Shown piece after piece: positions 7,463-41,482 of a DNA stretch of 64,000 nt. The notes under the pieces are model-generated. The model saw nothing but the letters and a program-made list of their open reading frames with translations. It made no database searches and was not told the origin of the DNA. The stretch comes from a virus: positions 1 to 64,000 of the IMG/VR virus record IMGVR_UViG_3300023202_000068; one strand, 5' to 3'. Each line of letters begins with the position of its first letter. Within the stretch, counting starts at the first letter, position 1. A program made the position numbers and the translations under genes.

Positions 7463-8524
7463 TTAAGCGACATCTAGTCGCAGATTGTTACCGTTGTACT
7501 GAGTATAAATTTCTTTCTTCATAAGTGCAACCATTTTGTGTAAAAATAACACTTGACGGTTATAATTCTTACCATCAGCAATTCTATAGTAAGTCTTGCG
7601 TACACCTTGTGGGTGTTTTCTAAGAACCCTTGCAAACAACTGAAAAGAAGCGTCTACGTTAGAAGAACTTCTCATGTCAATTAGAGTAGTTATATAACTG
7701 TCGTTAAAGCCAAGAATTCCTTTTCCAACAACAATAAGGGTATCAGATTCGTTAGCCTTAAACTTAGCAATCTCAACATCGTCTGGGTCGTTCTTAGAAG
7801 TAGACAGAGATACCTTACGTCCTTGAGTTTGTAGGTAGGTAGCCAAGGTCTTGGCATAAGCTATAGTGGGGCAGGCGATCATAAGCTTGCTCATGTTGTC
7901 ACGATTAGCTTTAGCCTTGGCAGCTACGGCTTTATAAGCTTCTACAGGATTTTTAGGATTAGTCTTAGCAACGTCAAAGTCTACAGAGTTATAAACACCT
8001 TTTTCAGTCAACTCTTCAGCGGAGATGTAGTACATTGCATATTCTTGAGCTTTCTCGTTGATAGCGTTGTACTTAGTAGGTGAGCCAGTCATGAGGATTT
8101 GGTGCTTAGGCTGAAGCTTTTTAATAATGTCCTGAACCATTGGTTCAAGGTAGAAGTTGTGAGCTTCATCAACGATTAAAAGATCAACGCTAGTCCAGTC
8201 AAGCTGACCGATGCTTTGTGGAATGCCAACTCTAACCTGAGCGTCAGTGTTATTGAGATGACCAAAAGATACGTTCATCTCAATATTTGGAGACTCAAGC
8301 TCTTGTAGGTATTGATTCTTAAGGGTGTTTTGACCTTCAGTAAGAACTAAGATCTTAGCACTAGGGTTAATAGAGACATACTTGTTAATGATGTGGTGTG
8401 AAATGGTAGTCTTACCACCGCCAGGAGCTACAGCCAGGATAGAGGCCTTAAACCTCTTAGAGAAGGCGTTTTGAAGAACCTTGTTGGCTGCAGTGATTTG
8501 GTATGTATAGTCAGTGTTTCCCAT
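7463..8524 (-). CDS. compact DEAH-box SF2 helicase
   Basis: APGGGKT, IVDEAH, MTGSP, QLFARVLR. Confidence 0.85.
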   Translation of the reverse strand: MGNTDYTYQITAANKVLQNAFSKRFKASILAVAPGGGKTTISHHIINKYVSINPSAKILVLTEGQNTLKNQYLQELESPNIEMNVSFGHLNNTDAQVRVGIPQSIGQLDWTSVDLLIVDEAHNFYLEPMVQDIIKKLQPKHQILMTGSPTKYNAINEKAQEYAMYYISAEELTEKGVYNSVDFDVAKTNPKNPVEAYKAVAAKAKANRDNMSKLMIACPTIAYAKTLATYLQTQGRKVSLSTSKNDPDDVEIAKFKANESDTLIVVGKGILGFNDSYITTLIDMRSSSNVDASFQLFARVLRKHPQGVRKTYYRIADGKNYNRQVLFLHKMVALMKKEIYTQYNGNNLRLDVA

Positions 8525-14655: not shown

Positions 14656-15170
14656 GTAATTACATTCCAAATCGTAGGTGGTTTCGCCTCTAACTGGACT
14701 AGTTGTACAGCTTTTTGGAAGATCATTTTTTGTTGATCTATCCTATCTTCAGCGTCAGACAGGCGTTCCCGTAAAGTTTGAACTTCTGAAACTAAAGCCC
14801 TTAATTGCCTAGCAATTTCAAGTTGATCTTTTTCTCTTTGCACAATACCGTCAACTTGAGGAGCCATTTTTCTTAAAGACTTAAGGAGAATCTGTAAGGT
14901 TTCTTGAACATCTAGAGGTTTATCTGGTAGAGGGTCAACTATATCAGATAATGCCTCAAAAGCATCTTCTAGGGGGAGGTCACGGGACCTAGAAAAGTGA
15001 CGTGCGGCTTGATTTAAGATATCAGTCCGTATACTCTTCATTTCGTCCCAGTCTATTTTAGACTCTGCATACTCTAATTGTAGCTCTTTAATATAATGTC
15101 TGTAGTATTCAGGGTTAAATTTTTCACCCATAATCTCTTTACTTACATTAGAATCGCTCATTAGCTTCAT
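14592..15170 (-). CDS. hypothetical coiled-coil protein upstream of terminase large subunit
   Basis: ORF; position would also fit a small terminase subunit. Confidence 0.5.
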   Translation of the reverse strand: MKLMSDSNVSKEIMGEKFNPEYYRHYIKELQLEYAESKIDWDEMKSIRTDILNQAARHFSRSRDLPLEDAFEALSDIVDPLPDKPLDVQETLQILLKSLRKMAPQVDGIVQREKDQLEIARQLRALVSEVQTLRERLSDAEDRIDQQKMIFQKAVQLVQLEAKPPTIWNVITCTLISLKTSLLNSLGFSSKN

Positions 15171-16917
15171 TCCTTATGTTAGGTGCATTGTCGATTGATC
15201 TTTGAAAGTCCATCTGATCTCTAAACTCTTGATTTTCTAACTCGCTATCTCTAGGAAAAGCTACGATACCTCCAAGCGTACCCATCACTGAAGCAATTGA
15301 TACTGCATTCTTAAGAGCTTGTTCTACAGCTTTTGTGGCATCAAGTAGACCTAGTTTCTTGGCATCTCCGAACTCTCCATTTTCGACATCGTAGACTACC
15401 TTGCGGTCAGCCACCATTCTTTGGAGAATTTCGTTAACCTCGTCTTGGTTGTAGCCAGCATTGTCGAGTAGTTTAAAGAAAGGGTAAAACAGTGATGGTC
15501 CAATAATGTCTGACACTACGGCGTCATCCCCGTGCTTTTCCTGTAAATGAAGGGCTAGGTTGATTAGCATTCTACAACCACCAGGAAGACATCCGTCTGT
15601 AATTGCCGCTCTAACAGCGCAAACCGCATCTTCTGCTCTATCTGCTTTTTCCTTCAATTCACCGTTTGAAGAACCATAAATCTGTAATTTAGCGATACCC
15701 CTAGTTAACTTACCTAGACGTTCCTCTATGAGTTGCTTTTCAATCTTTGACTCTGATTGTTTTAGTAAAGTTTTCAAGTCTTCAGCTCTTACTTCAATAT
15801 TAGTAGGGTCAGAGTCGCCTACGATGGTAGTTCTAAACCTGTAAATCTCTATCTTCTCCATACCATCACCAAAGTCATTTTCCGTAAATTCAGACAAAGG
15901 ATTGGTCATGTCGAATATCTTAGCCCCAGTAAAAGCAGACAAGTCCATTAAGAAGTGGAGCTGCCCATTAACCATAGGAGTCATAGGTGTTGCCAAAGGC
16001 ACTACGTTAATAGTGTTGGGGTTACTGAAATTGAAGGCAAAGTTGGTTAACACCGTATCTGTAAACTTATGGGCTACAATTACCACATTCTTATAGTCTG
16101 AGTTTCCAGAAACATACTGTTCACCGATTGCAGACAGTATTTGTTGAACCTGGACAGGGTCGTTAATTGTACCATCAAATAGTATAAAAAGTGGTTTTTC
16201 TAAAATACAACGCTGATGCGCCTGGTCGTTAATAAAGGCTGAGTGAAACTTGCCGATAGATTCTTCATATCCTTTTTCGATAGGAAAACCCTCTACAAGC
16301 TCGACGTTGTAGCCAGAAGGACCTGACAACTCTTGAATAGTAACGTGAGAAGAGCTTCCATACCCCACTTCTTCAAAGGCACTTATTACTGCCTTAGCCA
16401 TTTCATCATCACCATTTGCTGAAATCTTAGCTACCTTCTCTAGGAGCTTCATATTCTTTTGTGTAATCTTTATAGATGACTTTTTAATTTCAGGGACAAT
16501 GTCCTCTTTTAAGATACGAGAGATTAGTCTCGTAATCTTCTGTGGACTATACTTTTTGTTGTTTTTGCAAAACTCAAAAATATTCTTAATTAAGGCAGAG
16601 GATATGATAGTCGCTGTGGTAGTTCCATCTCCAGCTTCGTTAACCGTCTGAACCGCTGCATCCCTTGTCTGCTCGATAATTAAATGCTCGTAGGCATTTT
16701 GAGACCCAAGAGATCTGAAAATAGTTACTCCGTCTTTAGTGTTTTTATTTGGAATCCCTGGTAACTCAGATTCGATAATCACGTTACGCCCACCAGGACC
16801 AAGAGATGAGCCTACTATACGCTCAATCTTGTTCATAGTTTTTACGACAACTCTTTCTAAGTTATCGACATCACTAGAAAACATTTTTGCTGGTGATTTG
16901 ACTTTTTTTACCGCCAT
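15148..16917 (-). CDS. groEL: GroEL-like chaperonin
   Basis: SLGPGGRNV, TKDGVTI, AGDGTTTAT, ISANGD, EDAVCAVRAA, LPGG; AAGGAG RBS before ATG 16917. Confidence 0.96.
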   Translation of the reverse strand: MAVKKVKSPAKMFSSDVDNLERVVVKTMNKIERIVGSSLGPGGRNVIIESELPGIPNKNTKDGVTIFRSLGSQNAYEHLIIEQTRDAAVQTVNEAGDGTTTATIISSALIKNIFEFCKNNKKYSPQKITRLISRILKEDIVPEIKKSSIKITQKNMKLLEKVAKISANGDDEMAKAVISAFEEVGYGSSSHVTIQELSGPSGYNVELVEGFPIEKGYEESIGKFHSAFINDQAHQRCILEKPLFILFDGTINDPVQVQQILSAIGEQYVSGNSDYKNVVIVAHKFTDTVLTNFAFNFSNPNTINVVPLATPMTPMVNGQLHFLMDLSAFTGAKIFDMTNPLSEFTENDFGDGMEKIEIYRFRTTIVGDSDPTNIEVRAEDLKTLLKQSESKIEKQLIEERLGKLTRGIAKLQIYGSSNGELKEKADRAEDAVCAVRAAITDGCLPGGCRMLINLALHLQEKHGDDAVVSDIIGPSLFYPFFKLLDNAGYNQDEVNEILQRMVADRKVVYDVENGEFGDAKKLGLLDATKAVEQALKNAVSIASVMGTLGGIVAFPRDSELENQEFRDQMDFQRSIDNAPNIRNEANERF

Positions 16918-16953
16918 TGCAACTCCTTCTTGTTCCAGTAACATATACCACAA

Positions 16954-17670
16954 CTAGAAAAAATCTTGACCTTCACTTAAGCCTTCTTTAGCTAATTCCC
17001 AGTTAAAGCAATAGGCTTTTTCTTGATAAGGCTGGTATCTAGCGTCTAGTGTTGAAGCATTTACAAAGGTTATAGGGCCTTCCCCTAAATCTTTAACCTC
17101 TACACCACGTGCCTCATGTATGTGACCGAAAATATGCATTTTAACATCTAGCCTGTGTAGGTGTGTAAGAAGCTCTCTACATCCTACGTGTGGATTCCAA
17201 TAAGGTGGGTGTGGAAAAAGTACAGAATCCAAAATCCCTTCGGGAGGACCGTGTGTTATTAAAAGTTCAGTATCGCTTGGTATTTTTTTCCAGTGCTCTT
17301 CAATATGTGCCCCTCTAAATCTATTAAAAGCCCAATTGTTGAAGGCTGGGGATATTGGGGAGCCCCATATTTTAATACCCTCTATTTCAGCACCAGAGTC
17401 GTTTAGATAAATAATGTTATTATCCTTACACATCTGCTCGTAAATCCCACGAGTAGTTTTTTCAAAACCCCAATCGTGATTTCCAGCAATCAGTATTTTA
17501 TACTTGTAAGGAAGGCTTGAGAACCAATTAATAAAACTTGTAACTTCCTTCTTGCTACCTCTACCCGATATGTCTCCGGCGTGAATAATCATTTCACCTG
17601 GAAATAAAAGATCACCCTCACTTAGCAGTTCGTGCTTGTTATGTGTATCCGATATTGTGACGATTCTCAT
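16954..17670 (-). CDS. calcineurin-like metallophosphoesterase
   Basis: SDTH, AGD, AGNHD, THGPP, FGHIHE. Confidence 0.9.
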   Translation of the reverse strand: MRIVTISDTHNKHELLSEGDLLFPGEMIIHAGDISGRGSKKEVTSFINWFSSLPYKYKILIAGNHDWGFEKTTRGIYEQMCKDNNIIYLNDSGAEIEGIKIWGSPISPAFNNWAFNRFRGAHIEEHWKKIPSDTELLITHGPPEGILDSVLFPHPPYWNPHVGCRELLTHLHRLDVKMHIFGHIHEARGVEVKDLGEGPITFVNASTLDARYQPYQEKAYCFNWELAKEGLSEGQDFF

Positions 17671-18964: not shown

Positions 18965-20353
18965 TTAAGCAAGTTGACCGTCAATGTTTTCCATCAACAC
19001 GTTCTTACGAGGCTGCATAGCAGCTAGGCACAAGAAGCGGAAATGAGCTTCAGGAAGTGACAAGTCACTAACTGCTAGCTTCAATCTGCTATAAGGAGCC
19101 AATTGATGCATAGACATAGTAGAAGACTGAAGCAAGTATCCTGTTACGGAACCTGGACTTCTGTTTCCAAGGTCTACGAAAGAAGTGGCACCAGCTCCGG
19201 CAGCTTTTACACGACCGATGAACTTGGCTGTAGCGGCAGAGCCACCATCTTCAGAACGATACACGTTGAAGTGTTTAGCACCAGCAACAGCAGCGATTGT
19301 AAGTGTTACCGCTTGACCAGCAGTAGGGCTTACTTGAGCAGAAGCAGTCTCTAGAGACTCACCGCGCTCATTAACAGCAGTTGCTTTGTACACATAATCA
19401 CCAGCATCTAAGTTAGAAGCGGCGTTAGCAGCAGCAGCGGAACCTACAGAAGCAGGAGCAGCAGGGCTACCAGCACGTGCTCTTGCAGGTCTAGTTTTTC
19501 CAGACAAGAATCGGCTAGGCTCAAGAGCAACTAGAGCAGACGAAGTCCACTGAGTTCTCAAGTTAGCACCAGAAGCTTCTTGTGGAGAGCCTGCAAGCAT
19601 AATTCGTTCTTTGGCGAAGGCAATCTTGTTGTATGCGCTCAAAGAGATTGGATCTAGAACTAATTTATCAGCAGCACCGTGTTGCATTGCAGACTTAACT
19701 GATGCATCTTCGATAGCAGACTGAGAAAGAGTTCCATTAACAGAAACGACTACAGTTTGATCTGAACCGTATTCTGCAAACATAAGGTCTTGAGTGTTTG
19801 ACAAACTGTCAGACTCACGAACCTGAGAATCAACTCCACGAATGTTAGGCATTTCAGCGATAGCCGCAGGGTTACCGTCGAAAAGACCAGCATTTGAAAA
19901 GTCTGATTGACCACGGAAAGCGTCAAACTCAATATCAGCAGATAGTTTCATTGCAGCATCTTGAGCAGCGCGATCTTCAGCCTTACGACCATCGAAAGCT
20001 CCGATCATATTCGCAGCAACGGAAACTCTACGTGTAGTTGAGTAGTAACTCATAGGCACGATAGCTCGTACATAGTTACTTGTATCTTCTTCACCGATGC
20101 CGCCTTCAAATTGAGCGGAACCACCGAAAATACCGTAGTCTAGTTGTCGGTTAAATTGAATGAGTGTAGACTTAGCGTCTTTCACATTCAACATCTTCTG
20201 TAGCTTGATGTGACTGTCGTCAAAAGTGACGTTTTCCATCACAGGAGAAAGATCTTCTACCTGCAATGCAGCACCTTGGTTAAGCTGGCCAGGTTGCGCG
20301 TTATACGAACCGGCTTCCAAGGCTTTCATTAGATCATTAAGTTGTTCGACCAT
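18965..20353 (-). CDS. major capsid protein with inserted Ig/FN3-like domain
   Basis: 462 aa; GAALQVEDL N-arm, FEGG E-loop, YVYKATAVNERGES...FNVYRS insertion as in SPO1/Twort-like capsids; downstream of scaffold, followed by strong terminator. Confidence 0.88.
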   Translation of the reverse strand: MVEQLNDLMKALEAGSYNAQPGQLNQGAALQVEDLSPVMENVTFDDSHIKLQKMLNVKDAKSTLIQFNRQLDYGIFGGSAQFEGGIGEEDTSNYVRAIVPMSYYSTTRRVSVAANMIGAFDGRKAEDRAAQDAAMKLSADIEFDAFRGQSDFSNAGLFDGNPAAIAEMPNIRGVDSQVRESDSLSNTQDLMFAEYGSDQTVVVSVNGTLSQSAIEDASVKSAMQHGAADKLVLDPISLSAYNKIAFAKERIMLAGSPQEASGANLRTQWTSSALVALEPSRFLSGKTRPARARAGSPAAPASVGSAAAANAASNLDAGDYVYKATAVNERGESLETASAQVSPTAGQAVTLTIAAVAGAKHFNVYRSEDGGSAATAKFIGRVKAAGAGATSFVDLGNRSPGSVTGYLLQSSTMSMHQLAPYSRLKLAVSDLSLPEAHFRFLCLAAMQPRKNVLMENIDGQLA

Positions 20354-20373: not shown

Positions 20374-21132
20374 TTAAACTAGTAAATGCTTAATGGTTTC
20401 AAGTTTAGCGTTGTCTAGATAGTACTGATTGATCTTTTCTTTATCAGACTTTTCTAGAGTTCCCTCACGAATTTTTGAAGAAAGTTTAGCAGAGATTTCA
20501 GATTTAGTAAGTTTTTCAACAGCTTCCTCTTTCTTCTCTTCCTTGATTTCCTCTTCAGACTTAGCAATGTACTCAATGCCAGTGTAGGCTTTTCTCTTAG
20601 GAGCAGCGCCTTTCTTAACATAGTCGGTCAATGCGGTCGTTAGATGTTCAAGTGATTTCTTCAACTCTTCGTTTTCCTTCTTTACAGCTTCTACTTCTGA
20701 TTTAAGAAGATCAGAAGACTCGTCTTTAACTTCTACTTCAGCAGCTTTGTCTTCAGACTTAGCCATTTTAGTTTCAGCTTGTTCTTCTACTATTTCTTCA
20801 GAAGATTCGACATCTAGGGCTTTTTGGATAGAAGCAAGGTGTGCTTCAGCTTCATTTTTGGACATTGAAGCGTACATTTTATCCATTTCTGCGATATCTT
20901 CTTGGTCATAGTCGAAGTCCGTTACGATTTCGTCTTCGTTCTTTTGAACTTCTGTTTCAGAAGCTTGAAGCTCTTCTTGCTTTTCAGGCTCAGTAACTTC
21001 TTCAGCTACTTCTTCTGATTTGGCAAGTACTTCTTCATTTTGGGCTTCTGACTTAGCAAGGTGCTCAGCGAACTGAGTCTCTACTTCACTAATCAGAGCA
21101 GCCATGTCTTGTTCAGAATATTTCATGTGCAA
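20374..21132 (-). CDS. capsid scaffold protein
   Basis: Acidic coiled coil directly upstream of MCP with many xxKS(E) motifs. Confidence 0.75.
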   Translation of the reverse strand: MHMKYSEQDMAALISEVETQFAEHLAKSEAQNEEVLAKSEEVAEEVTEPEKQEELQASETEVQKNEDEIVTDFDYDQEDIAEMDKMYASMSKNEAEAHLASIQKALDVESSEEIVEEQAETKMAKSEDKAAEVEVKDESSDLLKSEVEAVKKENEELKKSLEHLTTALTDYVKKGAAPKRKAYTGIEYIAKSEEEIKEEKKEEAVEKLTKSEISAKLSSKIREGTLEKSDKEKINQYYLDNAKLETIKHLLV

Positions 21133-22327: not shown

Positions 22328-24985
22328 ATGTCTGAAGAAAAAGAAATAAATGGAACTTTCATTGACGGTATAGCTGCCTCTGAACACCTTGATAGCTCTG
22401 GTGAAAGAATTAGGGTTGAAGGTATTGATATATCAAGCCTTACTAAGGACGGAGTCCTAAACATGGAACACCAAAGTAAGGAAGCTTCTGCAATTGTAGG
22501 TAAGATACTAAAAGCTAAAAAAATATTAAAAGAATCTGATTGTGAGACTGATAGACATAGGTATTTTTGGAATAAAATTAAAATACCATATCTATATATT
22601 ATGGGTGAGCTATTCGATGCTGATGGACACCAGGCAGCAAAAGATATTGCAGCCATGCTTAAGTACGACAAAAGAAAAAAGCATGAAGATAAAGAAACTA
22701 AGAAACTTATAAACTTTTCCATTGAAGGTTCACGCCTTGAGAAAAAAGGTGCGGAGATATTAAAATCCATAGCTCGTAAGGTATCTGTAACTATTACACC
22801 TTGCAATAAAGTGTGCGAAGCAGAATTACTACTTCCCGATCAAATTGTTAACAATGGTAAATTGAAGAAGTTTGGTCAGCACGAACAGAACTTTAGCATG
22901 ATTCAGGACCTTATGTCTAAAAAAGAAGAGCACTTTGCGTCCTGTGAGCCTATGGAAAAGGCAAATTGGGGTGAAATGGGCATTAACGCTACTATCAAGA
23001 ATGAGCTTCCAAAACCCTCAATCACCAATGAAGTCGGTGACATATCTAAGCCTAACAAGGGCTATGGTGCTATTAAAGATGCAACACCGAAGCCTCTAAA
23101 GCCTAATTATGGCAAGGTTATAGTTAAAAGTAAAAAGAAAAAAGAAAAGAAAAAGCCTGAGAAGCCTATGGAAAAGCGCGAGTTTTTTAGAAGAGTAGGT
23201 AATCGCTGGAATCAAATGAAGCAAAGACGCGCTATTGACCAAACTGCTAGAAAGATGCAGAACGAAAGAGAGTCACAAGGTATAGCTTTTGATCCAGATC
23301 AAACAGCTATGGCAAGCCCTAATAAGACTACCCTTAGAGCTGGAAAAAGACCGGCACCTCCGACCCAAATCGAAAGAGATTCTATTTTTGCAAAACCATC
23401 TACACCACTAGGTCAGTTCTCACCTAAATACGCTAAAGATTCAAAAGAATCTTCAGATCAAAAAGAAAAAAGAATTGGAGCAATTGATCAAGCTGTAACA
23501 AGGCAGACGAATACTCTGAATGATATGAGAGATCGAAAAAGAGCTATGATTTCTGGCTCAGCAAATGCCGATACCGTAGCTATAGACGGTAATCCTAGTG
23601 TTAAAAAAGCACTTACTGCAGGTTCTGCTGTAGGAGCACCCTCTACACTAACAGGTGGTGCTGCTTTAGGTAAGATGGCTACATCAATGGTTAACGAATC
23701 TGTCGTAACACCTTCAAAGGCTGGCTCATTTACTAAAGAAGAAAAGAAGAAGAAGAAAAAGAAGGCGCTTAAAGAAATGTCTGATGAAGCTTTTAATAAC
23801 TTTGAGAAGAAAGAAGAGCTTTTAGACTTCCTAGTCGATAAATTACCTAACAATTCTGCAGAAGAAATTATGGCGCTAGCTAAGACTGTAGCTTTTACAT
23901 CTATTAAGAAGAAAGAGTTAATGCTTGCAGACTTAATGAAGGCTAGTAAAAACGTGCGAGAGCAAAGAAAGAAAGTTTTTGGTAGCAAGTCTCAGCCTGG
24001 TAAGGGCTCTAAAATGCGAGACAAGCATATGGAAACAATTGGTATGTTTGCCGATAGATTTCTAGGTCTTCAGTTAAACCCTTCTGGTGGAAAGATTGAT
24101 GAAGAGACTGGTGGTCGCAGAAGTGATAAGCCTAAGGTTGGAGTAGACAAACCCGACTGGAGATCTGGTCAACTTGAAACCCAATGGAATCCTGAGGCTG
24201 CAGTTCATGAAATGGCTCATTTGATGTTATTACCACAAGGTATTGGTCTAGAAGATGGTCAAAGACTTATGGACCAACAATATAAAGACGTGCAGCGTGA
24301 CTACGGATATATGAAGCAAAAAGAATCAAGACATGAAGTACAACCAATGGCTGCGGAACAAATTATACGTAGAATGATGGGACTTCCAGCTTCTCAGGTA
24401 GCTAAGCAAGTTAAACCAGACGACCCAGAAAGAGTAGCTGTAGAAGACGGTAAAACCCCAATCGCACAACGAGTACAAAGAGGTAAGACTAGGCAGGGAG
24501 ATGCTAAGTATGTTGATCTTCTTAGGCTTTCTCAAAACTTGACTCCAGAAAACAGAAAAACACTTACGAGAAGACTTAGTGGACAGGAAGTTTTTCACCC
24601 AGAAAAGGGTTGGCACAATGCCGAGACTTCTGATGCAAAAATCAACACACGCGCTGAAGAAGAAAAAATGGACAAAGCAGAGGTCAAGGTTGAGGAAATG
24701 CAAATTGACCTGATGAAGGATAAAAAAAAGAAGAAAAAGCCTTTTAAGGGTTACAACTCTAAGAAACACGCCAAGACTGGTGGAATGAGCGACAAGGCTA
24801 GAGAAAAATACAACCGAGAAAACAATGCTGATTTAAAGAGACCTGTAACTTCCGATAACCCCAAGGGTAAAGCTAAAAAACGTAAAAAATCTTTTTGTGC
24901 TAGAATGAAGGGAAACAAAGGCCCCACCTCTAAAGACGGCGAGTTGACACCAAAAGGTGCAGCTTTAAAAAGGTGGAACTGCTAA
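22328..24985 (+). CDS. prohead protease fused to extra domains (zincin-like HEMAH domain, C-terminal basic SFCARM domain)
   Basis: IDGIAASEHLDSSGE...NMEH...FSIEG...VSVTITPCN (HK97/herpes-type protease pattern); AVHEMAH; RKKSFCARMKG...ALKRWNC. Confidence 0.82.
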   Translation: MSEEKEINGTFIDGIAASEHLDSSGERIRVEGIDISSLTKDGVLNMEHQSKEASAIVGKILKAKKILKESDCETDRHRYFWNKIKIPYLYIMGELFDADGHQAAKDIAAMLKYDKRKKHEDKETKKLINFSIEGSRLEKKGAEILKSIARKVSVTITPCNKVCEAELLLPDQIVNNGKLKKFGQHEQNFSMIQDLMSKKEEHFASCEPMEKANWGEMGINATIKNELPKPSITNEVGDISKPNKGYGAIKDATPKPLKPNYGKVIVKSKKKKEKKKPEKPMEKREFFRRVGNRWNQMKQRRAIDQTARKMQNERESQGIAFDPDQTAMASPNKTTLRAGKRPAPPTQIERDSIFAKPSTPLGQFSPKYAKDSKESSDQKEKRIGAIDQAVTRQTNTLNDMRDRKRAMISGSANADTVAIDGNPSVKKALTAGSAVGAPSTLTGGAALGKMATSMVNESVVTPSKAGSFTKEEKKKKKKKALKEMSDEAFNNFEKKEELLDFLVDKLPNNSAEEIMALAKTVAFTSIKKKELMLADLMKASKNVREQRKKVFGSKSQPGKGSKMRDKHMETIGMFADRFLGLQLNPSGGKIDEETGGRRSDKPKVGVDKPDWRSGQLETQWNPEAAVHEMAHLMLLPQGIGLEDGQRLMDQQYKDVQRDYGYMKQKESRHEVQPMAAEQIIRRMMGLPASQVAKQVKPDDPERVAVEDGKTPIAQRVQRGKTRQGDAKYVDLLRLSQNLTPENRKTLTRRLSGQEVFHPEKGWHNAETSDAKINTRAEEEKMDKAEVKVEEMQIDLMKDKKKKKKPFKGYNSKKHAKTGGMSDKAREKYNRENNADLKRPVTSDNPKGKAKKRKKSFCARMKGNKGPTSKDGELTPKGAALKRWNC

Positions 24986-28858: not shown

Positions 28859-31800
28859 ATGTATAAGAAAACGTGGCGAATCTTAGCAAAATCAGAAAAC
28901 AACTCAGTACTTGGTAGAAGACCTCACTTTATCTTTAGTGTTGAGGAGCCTCGCTACGAGCAAAAGCTAAAAATGGACCACGATAAAGCTGTAAATTTTT
29001 TACGTCAAAAAGGCTATAAAGTAGAAGAGATGGGTGGGCGATACGGAGGTCTAGACGAGCGAAGTATTGTGGTTCACGACGTACCAGAAGAGTCGATTGG
29101 AAAACTTCATCAATTTGCTAAAGACTTAGGGCAAGAATCTAGTATACACTCAGACGGCAGTAGTCACTCTATGTTGTATCACGGCGGTGAAAACGCCGGA
29201 ATGCACGTTCGAGGTCAAGGTACTAACTTTCATAAAAACCCACCTGAGGATTACTTCTCTACATTATCGGATGGAACTATTTTCACTCACAACTTTAACA
29301 TGGACGAATGGCATCCTAGTGAAACTAACGGTGTAAAAAAATCTGAAGATGTCTTGATGAAGGCACCTATAATGGGTGAGATAGATCCAGACGATGAAGA
29401 TTGGCACTATGCCAATAGTGTTGGACACGTCCTCAATCCTTCTGGCGGTTTTAGCTACAGCAATAAGGCTACAGAAAAAATGAAGGATAGTTTATTTCAC
29501 CACGTGATCGAAAGACACTATCAAGACTCTCAAGAACCAGGTGGTACTAGAAAATTTTTTGACCACATATATACTACAGATGAAGAGGGTGAGGACCCTA
29601 TAGCAAACCTATCTATACAACGCACGTCTAAGGGAAAGCATAGGGTAAATCATTCAATTGTAGAGCCTTCACATAGAGGTAGGGGCTTTGGCTCCATGAT
29701 GTACCAAAGAGCCCTAGAGCACCACGGGGATTTAGAGTCCGACGAATCTGTTAGTCCCGAAGCACATCGCGTTTGGGAAAAAATGTCTAAGAAGCCTAAC
29801 GTACAAGGTAGGCTTGGTGAGTATCCTGGCCCTAGTAGTGATAGACATGCTTTTAAATTTATAAAAAAATCTGAAGATGATGACTCTAGATACTTAGAGC
29901 ACTACTCAAGGCACAAAGATTTAGCACACATAGATCCAGACCATACTGGTTCTGGCGTAGACAGGACTCAGCGAGCTGCCGCCAATAGGCAAAGTAAATT
30001 TAGCTTTTACTACCCTAATAACTACGAGAGTCCAGAGCCTTTTGTAACAAATCAAGCCCAATCAAAGTACAAAGTAAAGTTAGACCCAAATCACAAGGTC
30101 TTTGACGCAAAAGAGCACGGTAGCGATATAGTAAATCAAAGTAAAAACGCTAGTGGTGCTTTAGATATAGATGCTTTTGTACAAAATCTAAAGACTGCAG
30201 GCTACCATGGTTTTAAATCAAGACCTCAAGGTGTTGAAATGGTGGCTATGTTTGATAAGCTACCAGTTTACAGTGAAGAGCCAGTACAGCCTTTTAAGGT
30301 TAAGAAATCTGAAATAGAAAAAGGCGTTAAAACTCCTTCTAAGTTTATGGGTTTAAAGCGCCTAAAGCAAATTAAGCAAGACCACAATATAGGGGCTGGG
30401 GGAAATGAGTACTCTGAGGGTGAGTTAAAAGACGCCATAGTTCAAAGAAAAATCTCAGATGCTGAAAGAACAGTTAGAGAAGCTAAAAGAAGAGAAAAAG
30501 AACTTGCCTCTCAACATGAGGGTGGAGGAGCTTTACCACCTCCATTTGTGTTTAAAAAATCTGAAAGTCTTGAAAAAGGTGCAATGCAACGTAAGTTTAA
30601 GTTTAGACCTCAGGATGATGTAGGCGAAGATGAAGCTGAAAATGTTGATCTTTGGCAGCAAGATTCTTTTGAAGACGGTCGAAAAAAAATGGGCAATATG
30701 CATCCAAACGCAAAAATGAGAGCTTTAAATAAGTTGGCGGCTAAAACTAAAATGAGAACAGATAAGGATGGCAAAAGACATTTCTTACTACATCGAGGTG
30801 TCGGCGCTTCAGAGGCACTAAAAACTTATCGTAAAAAAGGTGCTTTTATTAAAGAAATAAATAATCCCGATTTCTCCTCTTGGACTTACGATAAAAAATT
30901 TGCCGATAATTTTGGAGCAGACTACGGGGGAGGCGCTCAATCTGCGTGGATACATGAGGATAACATTACACACATGCCTAATGCTTACGGCGATGTAAGT
31001 CACGGCGGAGCTGGTGAAAACAAAATGCACGGTGAGGGAGAGGTTATAGTAGGACCTCACAAATCAAGAATGGCTAGTCACAATGAGGTAAATACAGAAA
31101 TTCACCCAAACACTCTAGATGAGGCAATTAGTGCACGTGGAAAAATGGGAGGCTCGTGGCTTGGCAGGGAACAGTCTGATAAGTCTTTTAGAGAAAGAGT
31201 TGTTAAGCCGAGATTGAAAAACAAAAAGCTAGCTTCTTCAGAACACGATGTACCTGATCTTCTTAAGAATGAATATAAACCACCTAAGATCAACCTAAAC
31301 CCAGAACATGGTAAGAAGATCGCAGACGCATACCATAATATGAAGCACGACCCAGACCATCCTGATGTTCAAGAAGCCTATGGTGCTCTGATTAATGAAA
31401 CAAAGAAACAATATCAAGATATTTTGGATTCAGGTATAAAACTTACCCCTATTAAGCCTGGACAGGAAAATCCATACAAGAACTCAAAAGAATTGCATCA
31501 CGACATAGAGAATAACAAGCACATGTATTATTTTCCAACAGATCAGGGGTTTGGCTCTTCTGACAACGAATACTCTAACCACCCAATGCTTCAACCAACA
31601 GAGCTTGAGATTGGTGGGCAAAAACTTCTTGCAAATGACTTATTTCGAATAGTTCATGATATAAACGGACATCACCACGGTGGTAGAACTACGTTTGGAC
31701 CCAAAGGTGAGCACAAAGCCTTTCTCCATCACAAGACTATGTATTCACCAATGGCACAGCGTGCACTTGCATCAGAAACACTTGGTCAAAACTCTTGGGT

Positions 31801-33655
31801 AAACTTTGGACCTCATGGTGAGGCTAACAGAAGAGATCCAGCCAACACAATATATGCAGATCAAAAAGCCGGATTACTTCCTAACGATATACTAGAAGGT
31901 AATTGGCACGCAGACGAAACACCTCAAGCCTCTAGTCCTATGGATCTTGTAAACAAGCCAATTAAGAAGAGCGAGAAAAAGTTTAAATACCAACCTAAGA
32001 AAGGTGATACAGTACACTTATCTCACGGTATCACAGATAGTAAGCGCGGTGGAGAAAAAGTACATACTGATAAAAAATACGTAGTACATAACGAATCCAA
32101 AGGTGGATATAGACAATCACACTGGGTAGTTCCTGAAGGTGAAAAAGATACAAGTAAGGGTAGGTACCACAGAAGTGACAGACTCCACCCTGTAAAGAAA
32201 TTTGAAGTACAGCTTAAAAAAGACGTTGGAGCCCTAAAGTTTCCAGGTTTAAAAGACATTACTACAAGACCAGATCAAGAGATTAACTCAATTAGTACTG
32301 ATCGGCAAGCAGACATTGCTACTAAGCAAATCGTTGAGAGAGAGAAAAGAGTTAGACCTGAAGCTGCAGAGGCTGTAGAACAAGAAGCCGGAAGAGCTGT
32401 TAGAAGCTTAGTTCAGAAAAAACCTAAAAATATATTAGGTAAGCCCAAGAAAGCTAAGGGAACATTTGAAGGTATAGAGGGTGATAGGCAAGCGGCTAAG
32501 TCTCAGATTAGAGAGGCCAAGGCAAGACAGGAAGATAAAGATTTTTCAGAGCCAGGGGCTCAAGGCTTCTTAGTAGAGCAGCGAGTGCCAGATCAGAAAG
32601 ACTTAGGCTTTGTCCCTGAGAGACACGCAGGCGGTCCAGTACAGCAACACGAAGGTCATCATCACCTGTTTAGCGAAGTATCTAGAAAATACGGTCCAAG
32701 TGCTAGGTACAAACTTGTTAATCACTTATTGAAAGAGTTACCTGGTCAAGATATTGAAGACATGAAAGATCATTTAAGGTTTACTTATGGATATGACCAT
32801 AAAGATAGTAACTTTAATGAAGAAGTTTTGAACCACGCTAGGGATATACTTGTAAGCCCTAAATCAAGAGAGTCTTACTTAAAGTTTTTAGAAGAAAAAC
32901 ATGGTCCTGCAAACACCCATGACAATAGAAGAACAATGGCTAGGGTAAAATCTGGTTGGAGAAAAGTACTTAATAGTAGTAAAAAAGTTACACCTGAAAC
33001 TTTTCAGGCAGAGGTGATTCCTTTTAAGAGTAAGTTAACGGCATCAGAAAAGGCGGTTATTGATATGCACAAAGCTACAAGCTTTAGATCAGCTATAATG
33101 GCTGGACTTGCAACTGGAGCAATGGCGACTAGTAGTAACGTCCAAGCAGGTATGACACAACCAGAGACACCAGTACAAAACACAATCACTCATGACCAGC
33201 AAGTGCCTGAAAATAACAAAAACCACATACTGAATGCAATACAGTTCGTAGAATCATCTGGTGGTAAAAACACCAATCATGAACGACTCCCTCAAGACTC
33301 CATCCATAGAGGAGAAAGGGCTTTTGGAAAGTATGGTTTAACACCCTTATTGATTAGAGAAACTATAGGTCAACACAAAGACTTATCTAGAAAATACAAT
33401 TCATTGCAAAATTTGCAAGGCGATCAGTTTCACGAACAAATGCAGCAACACCCAGAACTAGAAGAAATTATAGCATCACGTCATTACGATAGGCTTTCTA
33501 GAAAGTTTGGTCACGATCATCAAAAAATTGGCTATGCATGGTTGAACGGAATCACTGGTACTATGAAGGCACTAAAGCGTGGCGACGATATATCGGACCA
33601 CTGGCATGTGCAAAAAATTACAAACGCATACAATAAAGCAAAATCTGGTAAGTGA
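28859..33655 (+). CDS. ~1598-aa multidomain virion polyprotein (SAM-lyase-like, GNAT, two ART-like, two zincin-like, transglycosylase-like domains)
   Basis: AGGA RBS before ATG 28859; catalytic motifs separated by KKSE-type linkers (see findings). Confidence 0.85.
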   Translation: MYKKTWRILAKSENNSVLGRRPHFIFSVEEPRYEQKLKMDHDKAVNFLRQKGYKVEEMGGRYGGLDERSIVVHDVPEESIGKLHQFAKDLGQESSIHSDGSSHSMLYHGGENAGMHVRGQGTNFHKNPPEDYFSTLSDGTIFTHNFNMDEWHPSETNGVKKSEDVLMKAPIMGEIDPDDEDWHYANSVGHVLNPSGGFSYSNKATEKMKDSLFHHVIERHYQDSQEPGGTRKFFDHIYTTDEEGEDPIANLSIQRTSKGKHRVNHSIVEPSHRGRGFGSMMYQRALEHHGDLESDESVSPEAHRVWEKMSKKPNVQGRLGEYPGPSSDRHAFKFIKKSEDDDSRYLEHYSRHKDLAHIDPDHTGSGVDRTQRAAANRQSKFSFYYPNNYESPEPFVTNQAQSKYKVKLDPNHKVFDAKEHGSDIVNQSKNASGALDIDAFVQNLKTAGYHGFKSRPQGVEMVAMFDKLPVYSEEPVQPFKVKKSEIEKGVKTPSKFMGLKRLKQIKQDHNIGAGGNEYSEGELKDAIVQRKISDAERTVREAKRREKELASQHEGGGALPPPFVFKKSESLEKGAMQRKFKFRPQDDVGEDEAENVDLWQQDSFEDGRKKMGNMHPNAKMRALNKLAAKTKMRTDKDGKRHFLLHRGVGASEALKTYRKKGAFIKEINNPDFSSWTYDKKFADNFGADYGGGAQSAWIHEDNITHMPNAYGDVSHGGAGENKMHGEGEVIVGPHKSRMASHNEVNTEIHPNTLDEAISARGKMGGSWLGREQSDKSFRERVVKPRLKNKKLASSEHDVPDLLKNEYKPPKINLNPEHGKKIADAYHNMKHDPDHPDVQEAYGALINETKKQYQDILDSGIKLTPIKPGQENPYKNSKELHHDIENNKHMYYFPTDQGFGSSDNEYSNHPMLQPTELEIGGQKLLANDLFRIVHDINGHHHGGRTTFGPKGEHKAFLHHKTMYSPMAQRALASETLGQNSWVNFGPHGEANRRDPANTIYADQKAGLLPNDILEGNWHADETPQASSPMDLVNKPIKKSEKKFKYQPKKGDTVHLSHGITDSKRGGEKVHTDKKYVVHNESKGGYRQSHWVVPEGEKDTSKGRYHRSDRLHPVKKFEVQLKKDVGALKFPGLKDITTRPDQEINSISTDRQADIATKQIVEREKRVRPEAAEAVEQEAGRAVRSLVQKKPKNILGKPKKAKGTFEGIEGDRQAAKSQIREAKARQEDKDFSEPGAQGFLVEQRVPDQKDLGFVPERHAGGPVQQHEGHHHLFSEVSRKYGPSARYKLVNHLLKELPGQDIEDMKDHLRFTYGYDHKDSNFNEEVLNHARDILVSPKSRESYLKFLEEKHGPANTHDNRRTMARVKSGWRKVLNSSKKVTPETFQAEVIPFKSKLTASEKAVIDMHKATSFRSAIMAGLATGAMATSSNVQAGMTQPETPVQNTITHDQQVPENNKNHILNAIQFVESSGGKNTNHERLPQDSIHRGERAFGKYGLTPLLIRETIGQHKDLSRKYNSLQNLQGDQFHEQMQQHPELEEIIASRHYDRLSRKFGHDHQKIGYAWLNGITGTMKALKRGDDISDHWHVQKITNAYNKAKSGK

Positions 33656-33981: not shown

Positions 33982-34506
33982 ATGGATATCAAGCCAGGTG
34001 AAGTCGAATCTGTAAAAATTATAGGTAACCTACACGGTAATGACGTTAAGATGGTCAAGACCCACGGTGGGTTTCACGTAGCAGTTGGTAAAAAGAAGAA
34101 AAACGGTAATAAAACCGAAGCCTTAGCCGCTGGATCACATCAAGCTATTGTTGCTCACCAAATTGCTAAAGAGTTTGGAACAGACTATCAACCAGCCATT
34201 ATGAAGTCTGAAGCCGATAGGCTTGAAGATGTCATGAATAAGTCTGAGCTTTTATCAAGCGAAGCGTTGGCTAAAGGTATTGAACTTTTTACACTTGAAA
34301 AAAACAACCATTACGACTTTGTCGTATACAAAAGAGGTATGACCCTAGGTAAGTATCAAGCTGAACTAGAGGGTAACACACTAAAGCTCACAAAGTATGA
34401 GTTCAACACGGCTCCTGATATGGATATAGCTAAGGCTGTGGCTAGAATGATTGAGGACAAGGCTGATGAACTAGGTGTCACTGAGATAGAAAAAGGTTGG
34501 TTGTAA
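33982..34506 (+). CDS. late protein with internal MKSE/NKSE motifs
   Basis: AGGAGG RBS; IMKSEADRLEDVMNKSEL. Confidence 0.7.
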   Translation: MDIKPGEVESVKIIGNLHGNDVKMVKTHGGFHVAVGKKKKNGNKTEALAAGSHQAIVAHQIAKEFGTDYQPAIMKSEADRLEDVMNKSELLSSEALAKGIELFTLEKNNHYDFVVYKRGMTLGKYQAELEGNTLKLTKYEFNTAPDMDIAKAVARMIEDKADELGVTEIEKGWL

Positions 34507-35938: not shown

Positions 35939-36829
35939 ATGTTATCTGCTAAGGATATCAAGGTCGTTCAAAGCATTTTAGGCGATGATATCTTTCAGAC
36001 TCTAGAAAAGTCTGAAATTAGCGGTGGACTATATAAACCTGGAACTAGAACTGCTTTAGATCCAGAAGAAATCAAGATTGCCTTAGAAATTGTTCCTAGA
36101 ACAATTTTGTCTTTTTTGATGGGACAGTTAAAAAATAAAGAGGTTGGTGAAATTTGTAAATGTGACCTTCCTTTCGAACCAGGCGCTATGATGGAGTGCC
36201 ATAAGCTTGGACCAGACAATTATTCTGGTCAAATTATCAAAGACGGTAAAGTTTGTGCAGAGTTTAAGCATAGATCTATACCAGGGGTGGGTTTAATAAT
36301 ACTAACAGCTTTTGAATTATATGATATATCTAACTTAGACCGTAAAAAAGCCTCTGAGTCAGATGAAAAAATAGAAAAACTACAAGACATCATTAATCAA
36401 AAACTGGAGTTACAAAGACTTGTTCAAGACGTAGTCGATAGAAGGATGTCTGAAAGAGCCGCAATAGACTCTTTAATACAGGCACGCTTAGGGGAGCACA
36501 TTGCATCAGTACAAGCACCGACTGAAGAAAAGGAAGAACCAACCATGGAAAAGAAAAGTAAGCTCAAACAATTTCTAGAGAGTCGAGAAGGTAAGAGACA
36601 AGAGTCTGTAGAAATGGAAAAAGGTGAAATTAATTGTCCTGATTGTGGTACGAATATTTACAAAAATGAAAAGAAAAACGAGATTAACCTATGCCTCTGT
36701 TATGGAGAGCATATGAATAAAGGCATTAAGTTTAAAAAATCAGAAGACGGTAGGGTTCAGTTTAAGTTTCCTAAGTCTTTTGACATTGAAAACGTAGAAA
36801 TGCTTTTAGACGCAATTAAGAAACAGTAA
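35939..36829 (+). CDS. late protein with C-terminal zinc finger and KSE motifs
   Basis: LEKSE, MEKGE, FKKSE; CPDC...CLC. Confidence 0.65.
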   Translation: MLSAKDIKVVQSILGDDIFQTLEKSEISGGLYKPGTRTALDPEEIKIALEIVPRTILSFLMGQLKNKEVGEICKCDLPFEPGAMMECHKLGPDNYSGQIIKDGKVCAEFKHRSIPGVGLIILTAFELYDISNLDRKKASESDEKIEKLQDIINQKLELQRLVQDVVDRRMSERAAIDSLIQARLGEHIASVQAPTEEKEEPTMEKKSKLKQFLESREGKRQESVEMEKGEINCPDCGTNIYKNEKKNEINLCLCYGEHMNKGIKFKKSEDGRVQFKFPKSFDIENVEMLLDAIKKQ

Positions 36830-36840
36830 CGGAGATTGAA

Positions 36841-38049
36841 ATGCAAGAAATATATGTAGCTATCAACGGTGACGATGTAGGAAATTCAATAGGTTCCGCT
36901 ATTGCTTCTGACGATAGGGAATCACTTGGCTCTACAACCTCCACTTTAAAAGATATACATTCGCAAATTGACCAGTGGGTTGAGCAGTGCGGTGGTGAAG
37001 TTGTAACTTCTTCAGGAGATGAAGGTATCTATAAGGTACCACATGAGTGTGCTGATCACCTAGAGGATATTCGAAGTGAGTATCAAGAGCACACAGGGCA
37101 CACATTGACTATTGGTGTTGGCCAGAGCATGTCTGAAGCTGCCAAAGCTTTGATCTATGGAAAAATGAACAACAAAGACCAGATTGTAGAGTATGCACCT
37201 GAAATGGACGAAGCTATTTCAAGTGAAACTGGTGAAATGGGCACTCAAGGATACGAGCAGCAAAACGAAGGTAAACTTCCTGCAGAAGAAGAAATGTCTT
37301 ATCAAAAGGAAAATGCTGCTCAGCAAGAAGCTAGTATGGCTGAAGAGCCCGATGAAGACATGGTTGAAGAAGACGGTGAAGGCGAAGCTGATAAAGATGC
37401 CGAAGAGATCATTGAAGAAGCCTCTAATGACCCAGAGCATGAAAAAGACATGACTCCTGAAGAAGAGCGCGAGCATGATGCTGCAGAAAATGAGCTTGAT
37501 GAAATGGATGACGATATCGTTGAAGCCGATGAAGAGGCTAATATGGAAGGTATCGACGGCGAAGCTGGTGAAGAAGACATGCAAGTTGATGAAGATGAGA
37601 ATATGGAAGAAGAACCTGAAGCTGACGAAGGTGATCACGAAGATTTATTAGCCGAAATGGTTCATGCTCATATGTCTGGTGAAGAAGATGAAGAAATGCC
37701 AGAAGAAGAGATGATGGAAGAAGAGGTGCCTGAAGAAATGCCAGAAGAAGAGATGATGGAGGAGGACCAATACAGTGACGAAGAAATTGAAAACTTACGT
37801 GCTGATATTGCTCATTCTTTAAACTCCTTTAAGGCAAATAGAGAAATGATCTTGCAAATGCAACAGGCAAGTCCTGAAATGTACGAGAGCTTAATGGTAA
37901 TGCTAAGATCTATGATCGCTATGGGTAGACATATGGGTTTTGACGCTGAACAGGCTGCTGATGAACAAATGTCTGAAGCACAGGCACAAGAAGAAATGCC
38001 TGAAGCTGCTCCAGAAGGTCAACCAATGGCGATGTCTGAAAAAAAGTAG
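36841..38049 (+). CDS. mCpol/GGDEF-like palm domain plus long acidic tail
   Basis: YVAINGDDVG...GGEVVTSSGDE...TLTIGVGQSMSEAAKALIYGKMNNKD. Confidence 0.7.
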   Translation: MQEIYVAINGDDVGNSIGSAIASDDRESLGSTTSTLKDIHSQIDQWVEQCGGEVVTSSGDEGIYKVPHECADHLEDIRSEYQEHTGHTLTIGVGQSMSEAAKALIYGKMNNKDQIVEYAPEMDEAISSETGEMGTQGYEQQNEGKLPAEEEMSYQKENAAQQEASMAEEPDEDMVEEDGEGEADKDAEEIIEEASNDPEHEKDMTPEEEREHDAAENELDEMDDDIVEADEEANMEGIDGEAGEEDMQVDEDENMEEEPEADEGDHEDLLAEMVHAHMSGEEDEEMPEEEMMEEEVPEEMPEEEMMEEDQYSDEEIENLRADIAHSLNSFKANREMILQMQQASPEMYESLMVMLRSMIAMGRHMGFDAEQAADEQMSEAQAQEEMPEAAPEGQPMAMSEKK

Positions 38050-40564: not shown

Positions 40565-41482
40565 ATGAGCAAAAAAGACGATAAATCATACACTGCCCAC
40601 GATGCGGCTCTTGCTGTATTGAAGAAAGCTCAAGAGATGCTCAAGAAAAGCACTCTAGCAAAAGCTAATACTGCTCACGAAGTTGAGGCTGGTGGAGAAC
40701 CAAAATCTGAAGGCTCTGAAGCCCCTGAATACTTGGCAAACGCTGATATTGAAAGCACCTCAGGTACTGACAGAAATGAAGCCCCTGACCAAATCAAACA
40801 GGCTCATGTTGACACTGATGACGCTGAAAAAGAAAAGAAGCGTAAAAAATACGATGGCGCTATGAAAGCCAGCGACGATGATGAAGAAAAAGAAGAAGAG
40901 ATCGAAGAAGATCAAGAAGATTATGGTTCTGAAGAAGAAGACAAAGACGATGATCAAGAAGATTATCACCAAAAAGGTAAAGACGTACCTACAGACAAGG
41001 GTACTAAGCACTTTGGTAAATCTGAAGATGTAGAGGCAGCCGCTAAAGCAGTAATGGGTGATAAAGATCTAGACGATGTTTTGGATAAAATGCCTAAAGA
41101 CAAGCGAGACGATGTTTTGCGCAAACTTCGTGAAATGAAGAAAATGGGCAAATCAAAAGGTAGCATGATGGCTGCATGTAAGTCAGAACTAGCTAAGTGC
41201 GGAGAAATGGAACGCGGCAAGAAAATGAAAAAATCTGAATCTAACCATAAAGACGGTATTAGTAAAGTCTACGGTTTTCTTGCTAAAAGTTATGCTAAAA
41301 AAGCTGACGAAAAAAGAATGGCAACACCTGAGGAAATGCAATCTTTAGAAGAGGCCAAAAAAGAAAAGAAAAAGAAATTAAAAAAGATGGCTGGGGAAAC
41401 TGCAAAAGCACCAAAAGACATGATGAAGCCACAAAGTAACAGTTCTATGCCCCCTGTTCCAAGCGGAAAGCAAGGATACTAG
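40565..41482 (+). CDS. charged, disordered putative internal head protein with many xxK[S/A] sites
   Basis: LKKS, LAKA, AMKA, FGKSE, MGKS, ACKSE, MKKSE, LAKS. Confidence 0.7.
   Translation: MSKKDDKSYTAHDAALAVLKKAQEMLKKSTLAKANTAHEVEAGGEPKSEGSEAPEYLANADIESTSGTDRNEAPDQIKQAHVDTDDAEKEKKRKKYDGAMKASDDDEEKEEEIEEDQEDYGSEEEDKDDDQEDYHQKGKDVPTDKGTKHFGKSEDVEAAAKAVMGDKDLDDVLDKMPKDKRDDVLRKLREMKKMGKSKGSMMAACKSELAKCGEMERGKKMKKSESNHKDGISKVYGFLAKSYAKKADEKRMATPEEMQSLEEAKKEKKKKLKKMAGETAKAPKDMMKPQSNSSMPPVPSGKQGY

Follow-up and report, generated by a model that had tools for sequence, protein, structure and literature searches.

The subject of this analysis is the N-terminal part of a 1598-amino-acid protein (P0001) encoded by an uncultured phage. 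The window that we analysed comprises the first 64 kb of the 153.5-kb IMG/VR virus record IMGVR_UViG_3300023202_000068, whose completeness is estimated at 96%. The phage has a contractile tail and a G+C content of 39.9%, and the gene of P0001 sits within a late tail/virion block, reading in the same direction as the tail and virion genes and tightly linked to them. The N-terminal domain of the protein is a true relative of the S-adenosylmethionine (SAM)-degrading enzyme of phage T3, and the resemblance is more than a chance match of motifs. The features of the protein are as follows, with T3 and Svi3-3 equivalents given in the hhalign register.

28859..33655 (+), gene of the 1598-amino-acid polyvalent protein (open reading frame and translation)
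28859..28897 (+), 13-residue N-terminal leader MYKKTWRILAKSE, conserved in relatives and ending in LAKSE (28883-28897)
28898..29347 (+), predicted released module, residues 14-163 (150 amino acids), from Pfam PF23780, AlphaFold2 (AF2), Foldseek/VIA and the ESM Atlas
28916-29323 (+), SAM-lyase-like core, residues ~20-155
29036..29044 (+), G60-R61-Y62, corresponding to T3 G55-C-Y57 and Svi3-3 G56-V-Y58
29057..29065 (+), E67-R68-S69, corresponding to T3 E68-K-T70 and Svi3-3 E69-x-S71
29132..29140 (+), Q92-E93-S94, corresponding to T3 Q94-D-C96 and Svi3-3 Q104-E105-S106
29333..29347 (+), VKKSE, residues 159-163, putative protease site closing the module on its C-terminal side
29861-29875, 30299-30313, 30551-30565 and 31961-31975 (+), further copies of the same motif in P0001
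33203..33652 (+), lysozyme-like / lytic-transglycosylase-like domain, residues ~1449-1598, with a hydrophobic segment before it

The ATG at 28859 can be taken as the true start because homologues begin with the same MYKK...KSE leader; a phrog_772 'tail fiber'-like gene ends 7 nt before it. The leader is followed by the SAM-lyase-like module, a GNAT domain (match at residues 235-292), further modules and the C-terminal transglycosylase-like domain. P0001 thus combines a SAM-lyase-like domain, a GNAT domain and a transglycosylase-like fold in one phage polypeptide, as expected of a polyvalent protein. Its homologues (1096-1854 amino acids) have the N- and C-terminal modules in common and differ in the middle ones. 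Ten relatives retain both ends (the leader with the lyase-like module, and the C-terminal domain) and two of the inner modules, with the remainder variable. In the leaders of ten full-length relatives M1 and E13 are invariant and Y2, K3 and K4 nearly so, and we regard the sequence MYKKTWRILAKSE as a candidate capsid-targeting sequence or pro-peptide.

The earlier note on this DNA had placed a SAM-lyase-like domain at 28900-29330. The peptides that it quoted are present exactly in the translation, with residues 15-157 constituting the domain core, and the comparison with T3 SAMase by profile or structure search that it had called for bears the proposal out. A 164-amino-acid query matches the Pfam family PF23780 (S-AdoMet_lyase) with an E-value of 1.9e-5 over profile positions 17-131 of 133, and T3 SAM lyase chains are the best matches among solved structures. 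Relatives of the domain show the same affinity: 12 of the 22 short sequences and 9 of the 33 long ones match PF23780, the best with an E-value of 6e-9, and a few match DUF3293, for which our literature searches found no paper. The nearest clusters in the ESM Atlas are PF23780-labelled viral proteins, automatically named as members of the S-adenosylmethionine lyase family (score 0.92). PHROGs offers no function for the N-terminal domain, and a pre-filtered search of the phage's genome with PF23780 passes over it, no candidate clearing the first-look filter.

The structural evidence is consistent with this assignment. An AF2 model of the module, built from a 22-sequence alignment, has a pLDDT of 89.6 and a pTM of 0.81. 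When it is searched against the PDB with Foldseek, the sole match below an E-value of 1e-3 is T3 SAM lyase (8bb1_E), followed by 7ock (the T3 SAMase-MetK complex) and 6znb (Svi3-3); Foldseek and VIA both put T3 SAM lyase on top. In BFVD, the neighbours of the module are large polyvalent proteins and small T7-like phage proteins, several of the latter carrying the annotation SAM hydrolase. T3 SAMase folds as a monomeric barrel of nine strands (bioRxiv 2023.02.27.530186), and the AF2 model shows the corresponding fold, a monomeric beta-barrel of about nine strands and two helices, including the C-terminal strands. A trimer of the Svi3-3 type, which would need oligomerization, is rejected because the model follows the monomeric T3 barrel. 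Since a barrel of this type should have a self-contained pocket, it would suit a module that works within a fusion or is released from one. A chance match of motifs is ruled out by the profile, fold and conservation evidence taken together.

The active site is recovered in the same register. Both hhalign runs against the T3 clade yield one and the same full-length alignment, as expected, and the pattern G-x-Y, E-x-S and Q-[D/E]-[S/C] that the earlier note had recognized is present in register with T3 and conserved at 90-99%. Among 155 cluster representatives, G60 is conserved in 94%, Y62 in 95%, E67 in 96%, S69 in 90%, G91 in 100%, Q92 in 99%, S94 in 97% and H103, which aligns with T3 H105, in 96%. 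In Svi3-3, Gly56, Tyr58, Glu69 and Gln104-Glu105-Ser106 bind and orient SAM; the G-x-Y segment packs against the ribose and makes a cation-pi contact to the sulfonium, and the glutamate is the key substrate-orienting residue (PMC7877911). In T3 SAMase, the E68Q and Q94A substitutions each lower activity five-fold and the E68Q/Q94A double mutant is inactive (bioRxiv 2023.02.27.530186). Because the active-site positions are among the most conserved of the subfamily, the pattern is that of an enzyme under selection. A further set of invariant positions (H23, S98, G110, G114, G119-x-G-T122, P129 and F142-x-H144) is specific to these proteins, and on sequence grounds it defines a subfamily separate from T3.

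The subfamily is widespread and its position within proteins varies. An exhaustive HMMER search of 1.84 billion representatives recovers the domain in 371 clusters (at 50% identity) at E-values up to 1e-3 and in 173 at E-values up to 1e-10. Among 155 instances, 85 are N-terminal in larger proteins, 28 internal and 21 C-terminal, and 21 lie in proteins of <=230 amino acids, at least one of which is a complete stand-alone gene. The domain is thus a mobile module, and its usual place is the N-terminal end of a large multidomain polyvalent protein. Its fusion partners in relatives include GNAT, ART-PolyVal, PI3/PI4-kinase-like and mCpol/Cas10-palm domains, the last in 4 of 33 relatives of the polyvalent protein. 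One homologue, from elemoC, carries the label 'structural protein', for which the flavophage paper gives no proteomic basis.

A tblastn search of 50,697 phage records with the domain finds Myxococcus phage Mx1 only, plus sub-threshold matches in Aeromonas phages. Mx1 is cultured, and its domain lies in a 559-amino-acid protein (WNM70344.1) whose gene is immediately upstream of the tail sheath gene. We also note that WNM70344.1 (L005:6185-7861) carries four repeats of ~19 amino acids, K-M-E-x-P-A-[ST]-K-E-x-A-N-G-G-P-x-P, distributed on both sides of the SAM-lyase-like domain. The segment KKSELMEKA follows the domain, FGKSELD occurs as well, and the protein ends in a Cys-rich tail.

The borders of the module in P0001 are marked by a short motif, h-x-K-S-E, which we scanned as [VILFM]-x-K-S-E across the 48,450 residues of the genome's open reading frames. 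The genome holds 20 copies in total, 18 of which fall in five proteins of the 20-42 kb late region, giving these proteins a motif density about 150 times that of the remaining proteome. P0001 has six copies, at residues 9-13, 159-163, 335-339, 481-485, 565-569 and 1035-1039; composition-preserving shuffles predict 0.18 copies, and none of 20000 shuffles reaches six. Six more are found in the scaffold-like protein at 20374-21132 (-), and two each in the late proteins at 33982-34506, 35939-36829 and 40565-41482 (+). The first copy in P0001 closes the conserved leader and the second lies just past the lyase-like fold, so that the enclosed piece is 150 amino acids long, against 152 for T3 SAMase. 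In the relatives from other phages, K-[ST]-E occurs within <=30 amino acids of the domain in 22% upstream and 33% downstream (128 relatives for the downstream side), over a background of 4%.

The genes that frame this pattern include the head genes, which lie on the minus strand at 9.9-21.1 kb and encode the portal, large terminase, a GroEL-like chaperonin and the major head protein. The late block follows on the plus strand from ~21.7 to 52 kb and contains the tail sheath and tail-fibre-like genes. Three features of this region bear on the motif.

18965-20353, major head protein gene
20374..21132 (-), acidic 252-amino-acid scaffold-like protein adjoining the major head protein gene, with six h-x-K-S-E motifs against 0.13 expected
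22328..24985 (+), 885-amino-acid protein whose N-terminus is the only prohead protease candidate and whose C-terminus is DUF6321

Given its six motifs, the scaffold-like protein is probably cut by the same protease as P0001. A repeated motif shared with a scaffold-like protein points to processing by a head protease rather than autoproteolysis, and the motif may define the specificity of such a protease and mark a set of head-internal proteins. As for the protease itself, the N-terminus of the 885-amino-acid protein matches phrog_1028 ('head maturation protease') with E-values of 1e-4 and 3.2e-7 over only ~50 residues. Its Atlas neighbours include S78 and S77 prohead proteases (0.89-0.90), which we take as a lead only. 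The middle 700 residues of this protein have no family, and PHROGs gives no function for eight open reading frames of the head region.

Other observations on the neighbourhood concern its conservation and gene content. Synteny extends to a 167-kb relative, represented among other copies by one binned as Flavobacterium, and a megablast search of 6 kb against the phage collection gives no match. The chaperonin (phrog_5725, E-value 2.5e-88) and a metallophosphoesterase, at 15148-16953 (-) and 16954-17670 (-), lie between the terminase and major head protein genes. Further upstream, the neighbouring genes at 5277-6758 (-) and 7463-8524 (-) are similar to one and the same region of the DNA helicase family phrog_16 and are probably paralogues rather than a split gene. 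A protein with an mCpol (minimal CRISPR polymerase) domain is encoded in the late block at 36841-38049 (+) and is kept in the 167-kb relative (L002:18001-19440). None of the three main DNA methyltransferase Pfam families is detected in the phage, so a loss of SAM would not clash with self-methylation by enzymes of these families.

Several of the middle modules of P0001 have no family, and one is common to cyanophage and mycobacteriophage proteins. The best-conserved inner module (31223-31882, residues ~789-1008) carries HDxxGH, GQNSWVNFGPHGE and YADQKAG and matches phrog_3170. It also occurs in cyanophage genes annotated as 'lysin / large polyvalent protein / RelA-SpoT' and in about 200 mycobacteriophages; it is without a Pfam family, and no PDB sequence matches it. 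At residues ~600-720 (30600-31020) a pattern R...S-S-W-T...G-E-G-E-V, typical of R-S-E ADP-ribosyltransferases, can be seen by eye. The Pfam family ART-PolyVal is found in one relative only and not in P0001. The C-terminal domain was modelled by AF2 with a pLDDT of 83-95, and its best twelve Foldseek matches in the PDB are all lytic transglycosylases (Cj0843c, Slt70 and Pseudomonas Slt among them), with probabilities of 0.95-1.00 and E-values of 0.014 or weaker. Sequence searches of the PDB find no chain with either the C-terminal 198 amino acids (phmmer) or a 10-sequence full-length profile (hmmsearch).

These features can be assembled into a model to which we give about an even chance of being correct: the module is a T3-type SAM lyase that is made late, loaded into the head, released by a protease and carried in with the DNA to lower SAM. 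The 1598-amino-acid protein would be made alongside the virion proteins and loaded into the prohead. A head maturation protease would then cut after the h-x-K-S-E motifs, releasing an enzyme of ~150 amino acids. On entering the cell with the DNA, this enzyme would convert SAM to methylthioadenosine and homoserine lactone. The loss of SAM would weaken SAM-dependent defences, such as type I restriction-modification and BREX, which both require SAM, and host methylation as well, before any phage gene is expressed. The sequence features make it probable that the module is released inside the phage head and travels into the cell alongside the DNA. The analysis itself establishes the homology, the fold, the conserved catalytic residues, the modular build, the late virion setting of the gene and the non-random placing of the motif, whereas SAM cleavage, packaging, processing, delivery and the defence target are inferred. 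Delivery is favoured by the late virion context, the transglycosylase-like C-terminus, the enrichment of the motif, the conserved E13 of the leader and the similar flanking motifs in other phages. For polyvalent proteins encoded among virion genes, moreover, the general reading is that they enter the cell together with the DNA (Iyer et al. 2017, PMC5512222).

A number of points weigh against this model. The PF23780 score of 25.0 bits is 3 below the curated cut-off of 28, and T3 SAMase itself scores 143 bits on the same model. Profile comparison by hhalign with the narrow T3 clade (a 14-member alignment) is not significant (P 0.04-0.08), nor is the score of 8.8 bits or less that the hidden Markov model of the family gives to T3-clade proteins; hhalign of the family against T3 SAMase alone produces no meaningful alignment. 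Sequence searches with the domain (phmmer) or with the 22-sequence family profile (hmmsearch) recover no PDB chain. Within the active site, the hairpin between Y62 and E67 has 4 residues, compared with 10 in T3 and Svi3-3. The corresponding loop of SAM-AMP lyases helps to choose between SAM and SAM-AMP (PMC12255297), and a hairpin 6 residues shorter therefore means that the substrate could differ from SAM. As regards delivery, P0001 is not fused to a MuF or portal domain, and the genome has no match to a canonical prohead protease family (Peptidase_S77 or S78).

The supply of enzyme must also be considered. We take the SAM pool of a cell to be ~1e5 molecules and the load of a head to be tens of copies of the 180-kDa precursor. 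With a kcat of 9.5 per second for Svi3-3 (PMC7877911), that is, at about 10 turnovers per second, we estimate that clearing the pool would take minutes, and DNA entry through a contractile tail is faster. Such slow clearing means that the enzyme may only give a head start, act together with other modules, or target something scarcer.

The last of these possibilities leads to an enzyme of the same family acting on a scarce SAM-derived substrate, for example the SAM-AMP that CorA-type type III CRISPR systems use as a second messenger. The injected module would then be an anti-CRISPR or signal eraser and not a depleter of bulk SAM. A few pre-made enzymes would fit a scarce messenger better than an abundant pool by our kinetic estimate, and the shortened hairpin lies where pocket-loop differences set the specificity of a phage enzyme that cleaves SAM-AMP and not SAM (PMC12255297). 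Within the wider SAM lyase / PII-like group, the SAM-AMP lyases have only the catalytic Glu and Gln in common with SAM lyase (PMC12255297). Those associated with type III CRISPR and the phage enzyme AcrIIIB4 are characterized by a trimeric PII-like fold whose T-loop accommodates the AMP moiety. Relatives of the phage are binned with Flavobacterium and SAM-AMP signalling has been described in Bacteroides; in addition, the mCpol/Cas10-palm domain is fused to the SAM-lyase-like domain in some relatives, and an mCpol gene lies near that of P0001. The fold argues instead for the T3 type, and we consider SAM-AMP or a similar substrate improbable. The broader proposal that the subfamily as a whole is a pre-delivered eraser of a SAM-derived immune signal, be it SAM-AMP or a still unknown sulfonium nucleotide, is speculative, and we hold its probability to be small.

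Two further readings keep the family assignment and alter what the protein does. The module could be an active SAM lyase that is not delivered with the DNA, acting as a late cytoplasmic effector or as a lysis-stage or virion-surface protein; SAM destruction would in that case serve late functions, such as the production of unmethylated progeny DNA or the shutdown of host metabolism. A muralytic domain fused to effectors fits an ejection protein better than an endolysin, but the transglycosylase-like match is weak by E-value. Likewise, the genome and P0001 have yielded no MuF, portal or known capsid-targeting domain in the protein and no canonical head protease, but h-x-K-S-E at the module borders is almost exclusive to the scaffold-like and other late-block proteins, and the short leader ending in this motif is conserved. 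The authors of the S-CREM2 study warn that abundant late proteins can co-purify with virions (PMC10665884), whereas the general reading of polyvalent proteins in virion-gene contexts is one of injection. On balance we think an undelivered enzyme unlikely. Alternatively, the SAM-lyase fold could act mainly by binding, either sequestering or inhibiting the host SAM synthetase, as T3 SAMase does with MetK, or contributing to the structure or targeting of the polyprotein. A catalytically inactive T3 SAMase (E68Q/Q94A) retains a partial block of BREX by binding MetK (bioRxiv 2023.02.27.530186), the module falls under the Pfam cut-off, and a targeting function could explain why it is N-terminal in 85 of 155 relatives. 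This reading is difficult to reconcile with the conservation of the SAM-pocket and catalytic residues, which at 90-100% are the most conserved positions of the family and constitute an enzyme signature, or with the occurrence of the domain in internal and C-terminal positions and as a stand-alone gene. The N-terminal tail by which T3 SAMase contacts MetK is, moreover, not conserved here, and we regard a mainly binding role as very improbable.

Should the module be both packaged and active, phage particles would carry, besides DarB, IPI, Alt and the N4 virion RNA polymerase, a means of destroying a cofactor or signal. The set of domains in the text of the 2017 polyvalent-protein paper would gain a new member, and the SAM hydrolase seen in the virion proteome of one cyanophage could be understood mechanistically. 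Were the signal-eraser reading true, this would be the first virion-carried anti-signalling enzyme of its class, and it would open a way into unknown SAM-based defence signalling of Bacteroidota and myxobacteria. Because the relative Myxococcus phage Mx1 is in culture, the delivery idea is directly testable. The enzyme family and the polyvalent-protein concept are already known, and the 2023 S-CREM2 study is a precedent for a packaged SAM hydrolase (PMC10665884). What is new is the subfamily, its breadth in polyvalent proteins outside T4-like cyanophages, and the statistical link of the module borders to a scaffold-type cleavage motif.

The closest known enzyme is T3 gp0.3 SAM lyase (PDB 8BB1, 7OCK; PF23780), which is only about 13% identical to the module; direct profile comparison with the T3 clade fails to detect the kinship. 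T3-like phages are known to express SAM lyase early, as a countermeasure to restriction and BREX. In T3 it is the product of the first early gene and a free protein, whereas the module described here forms the N-terminal part of a late multidomain protein. Between the Tyr and the Glu, T3 has a hairpin of 10 residues against 4 in the module, which also lacks the MetK-binding N-terminal tail of T3. Svi3-3 (PDB 6ZM9/6ZNB) and the SAM-AMP lyases of C. botulinum and phage, which are PII-like trimers, have the catalytic Glu and Gln and the ferredoxin-like core in common with the module, and Q104-E105-S106 of Svi3-3 is identical to its Q-E-S.

Cyanophage S-CREM2 offers the nearest parallel for the proposed delivery. 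Its ORF6, a SAM hydrolase, was found in virions by mass spectrometry, and the authors inferred an anti-restriction role with the co-purification caveat noted above (PMC10665884, 2023). As proposed here, a defence-countering enzyme would be carried in the particle. ORF6 is not detectable by BLAST with this domain. Polyvalent proteins (PMC5512222) likewise bring many unrelated enzymatic domains together in one polypeptide, in a virion-gene setting of phages with portal and terminase, and are predicted to be delivered with the DNA. The text of that paper makes no mention of a SAM-degrading domain, and our literature searches turned up no description of SAM lyase domains within polyvalent proteins. 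P0001 differs from them in having no MuF or metallopeptidase anchor by Pfam and in having its modules separated by repeated h-x-K-S-E motifs.

Alt and the internal proteins IPI-III of T4 are packaged in the head and processed by gp21, and they bear a capsid-targeting sequence with L/I-x-E sites that are also present in the scaffold. The T4 motif differs from h-x-K-S-E, the T4 cargo is a small separate protein and not a module of a polyprotein, and for the present phage only a candidate protease can be named. Like Alt and the internal proteins, however, P0001 begins with a short N-terminal leader that ends in a Glu-terminated motif shared with a scaffold-like protein.

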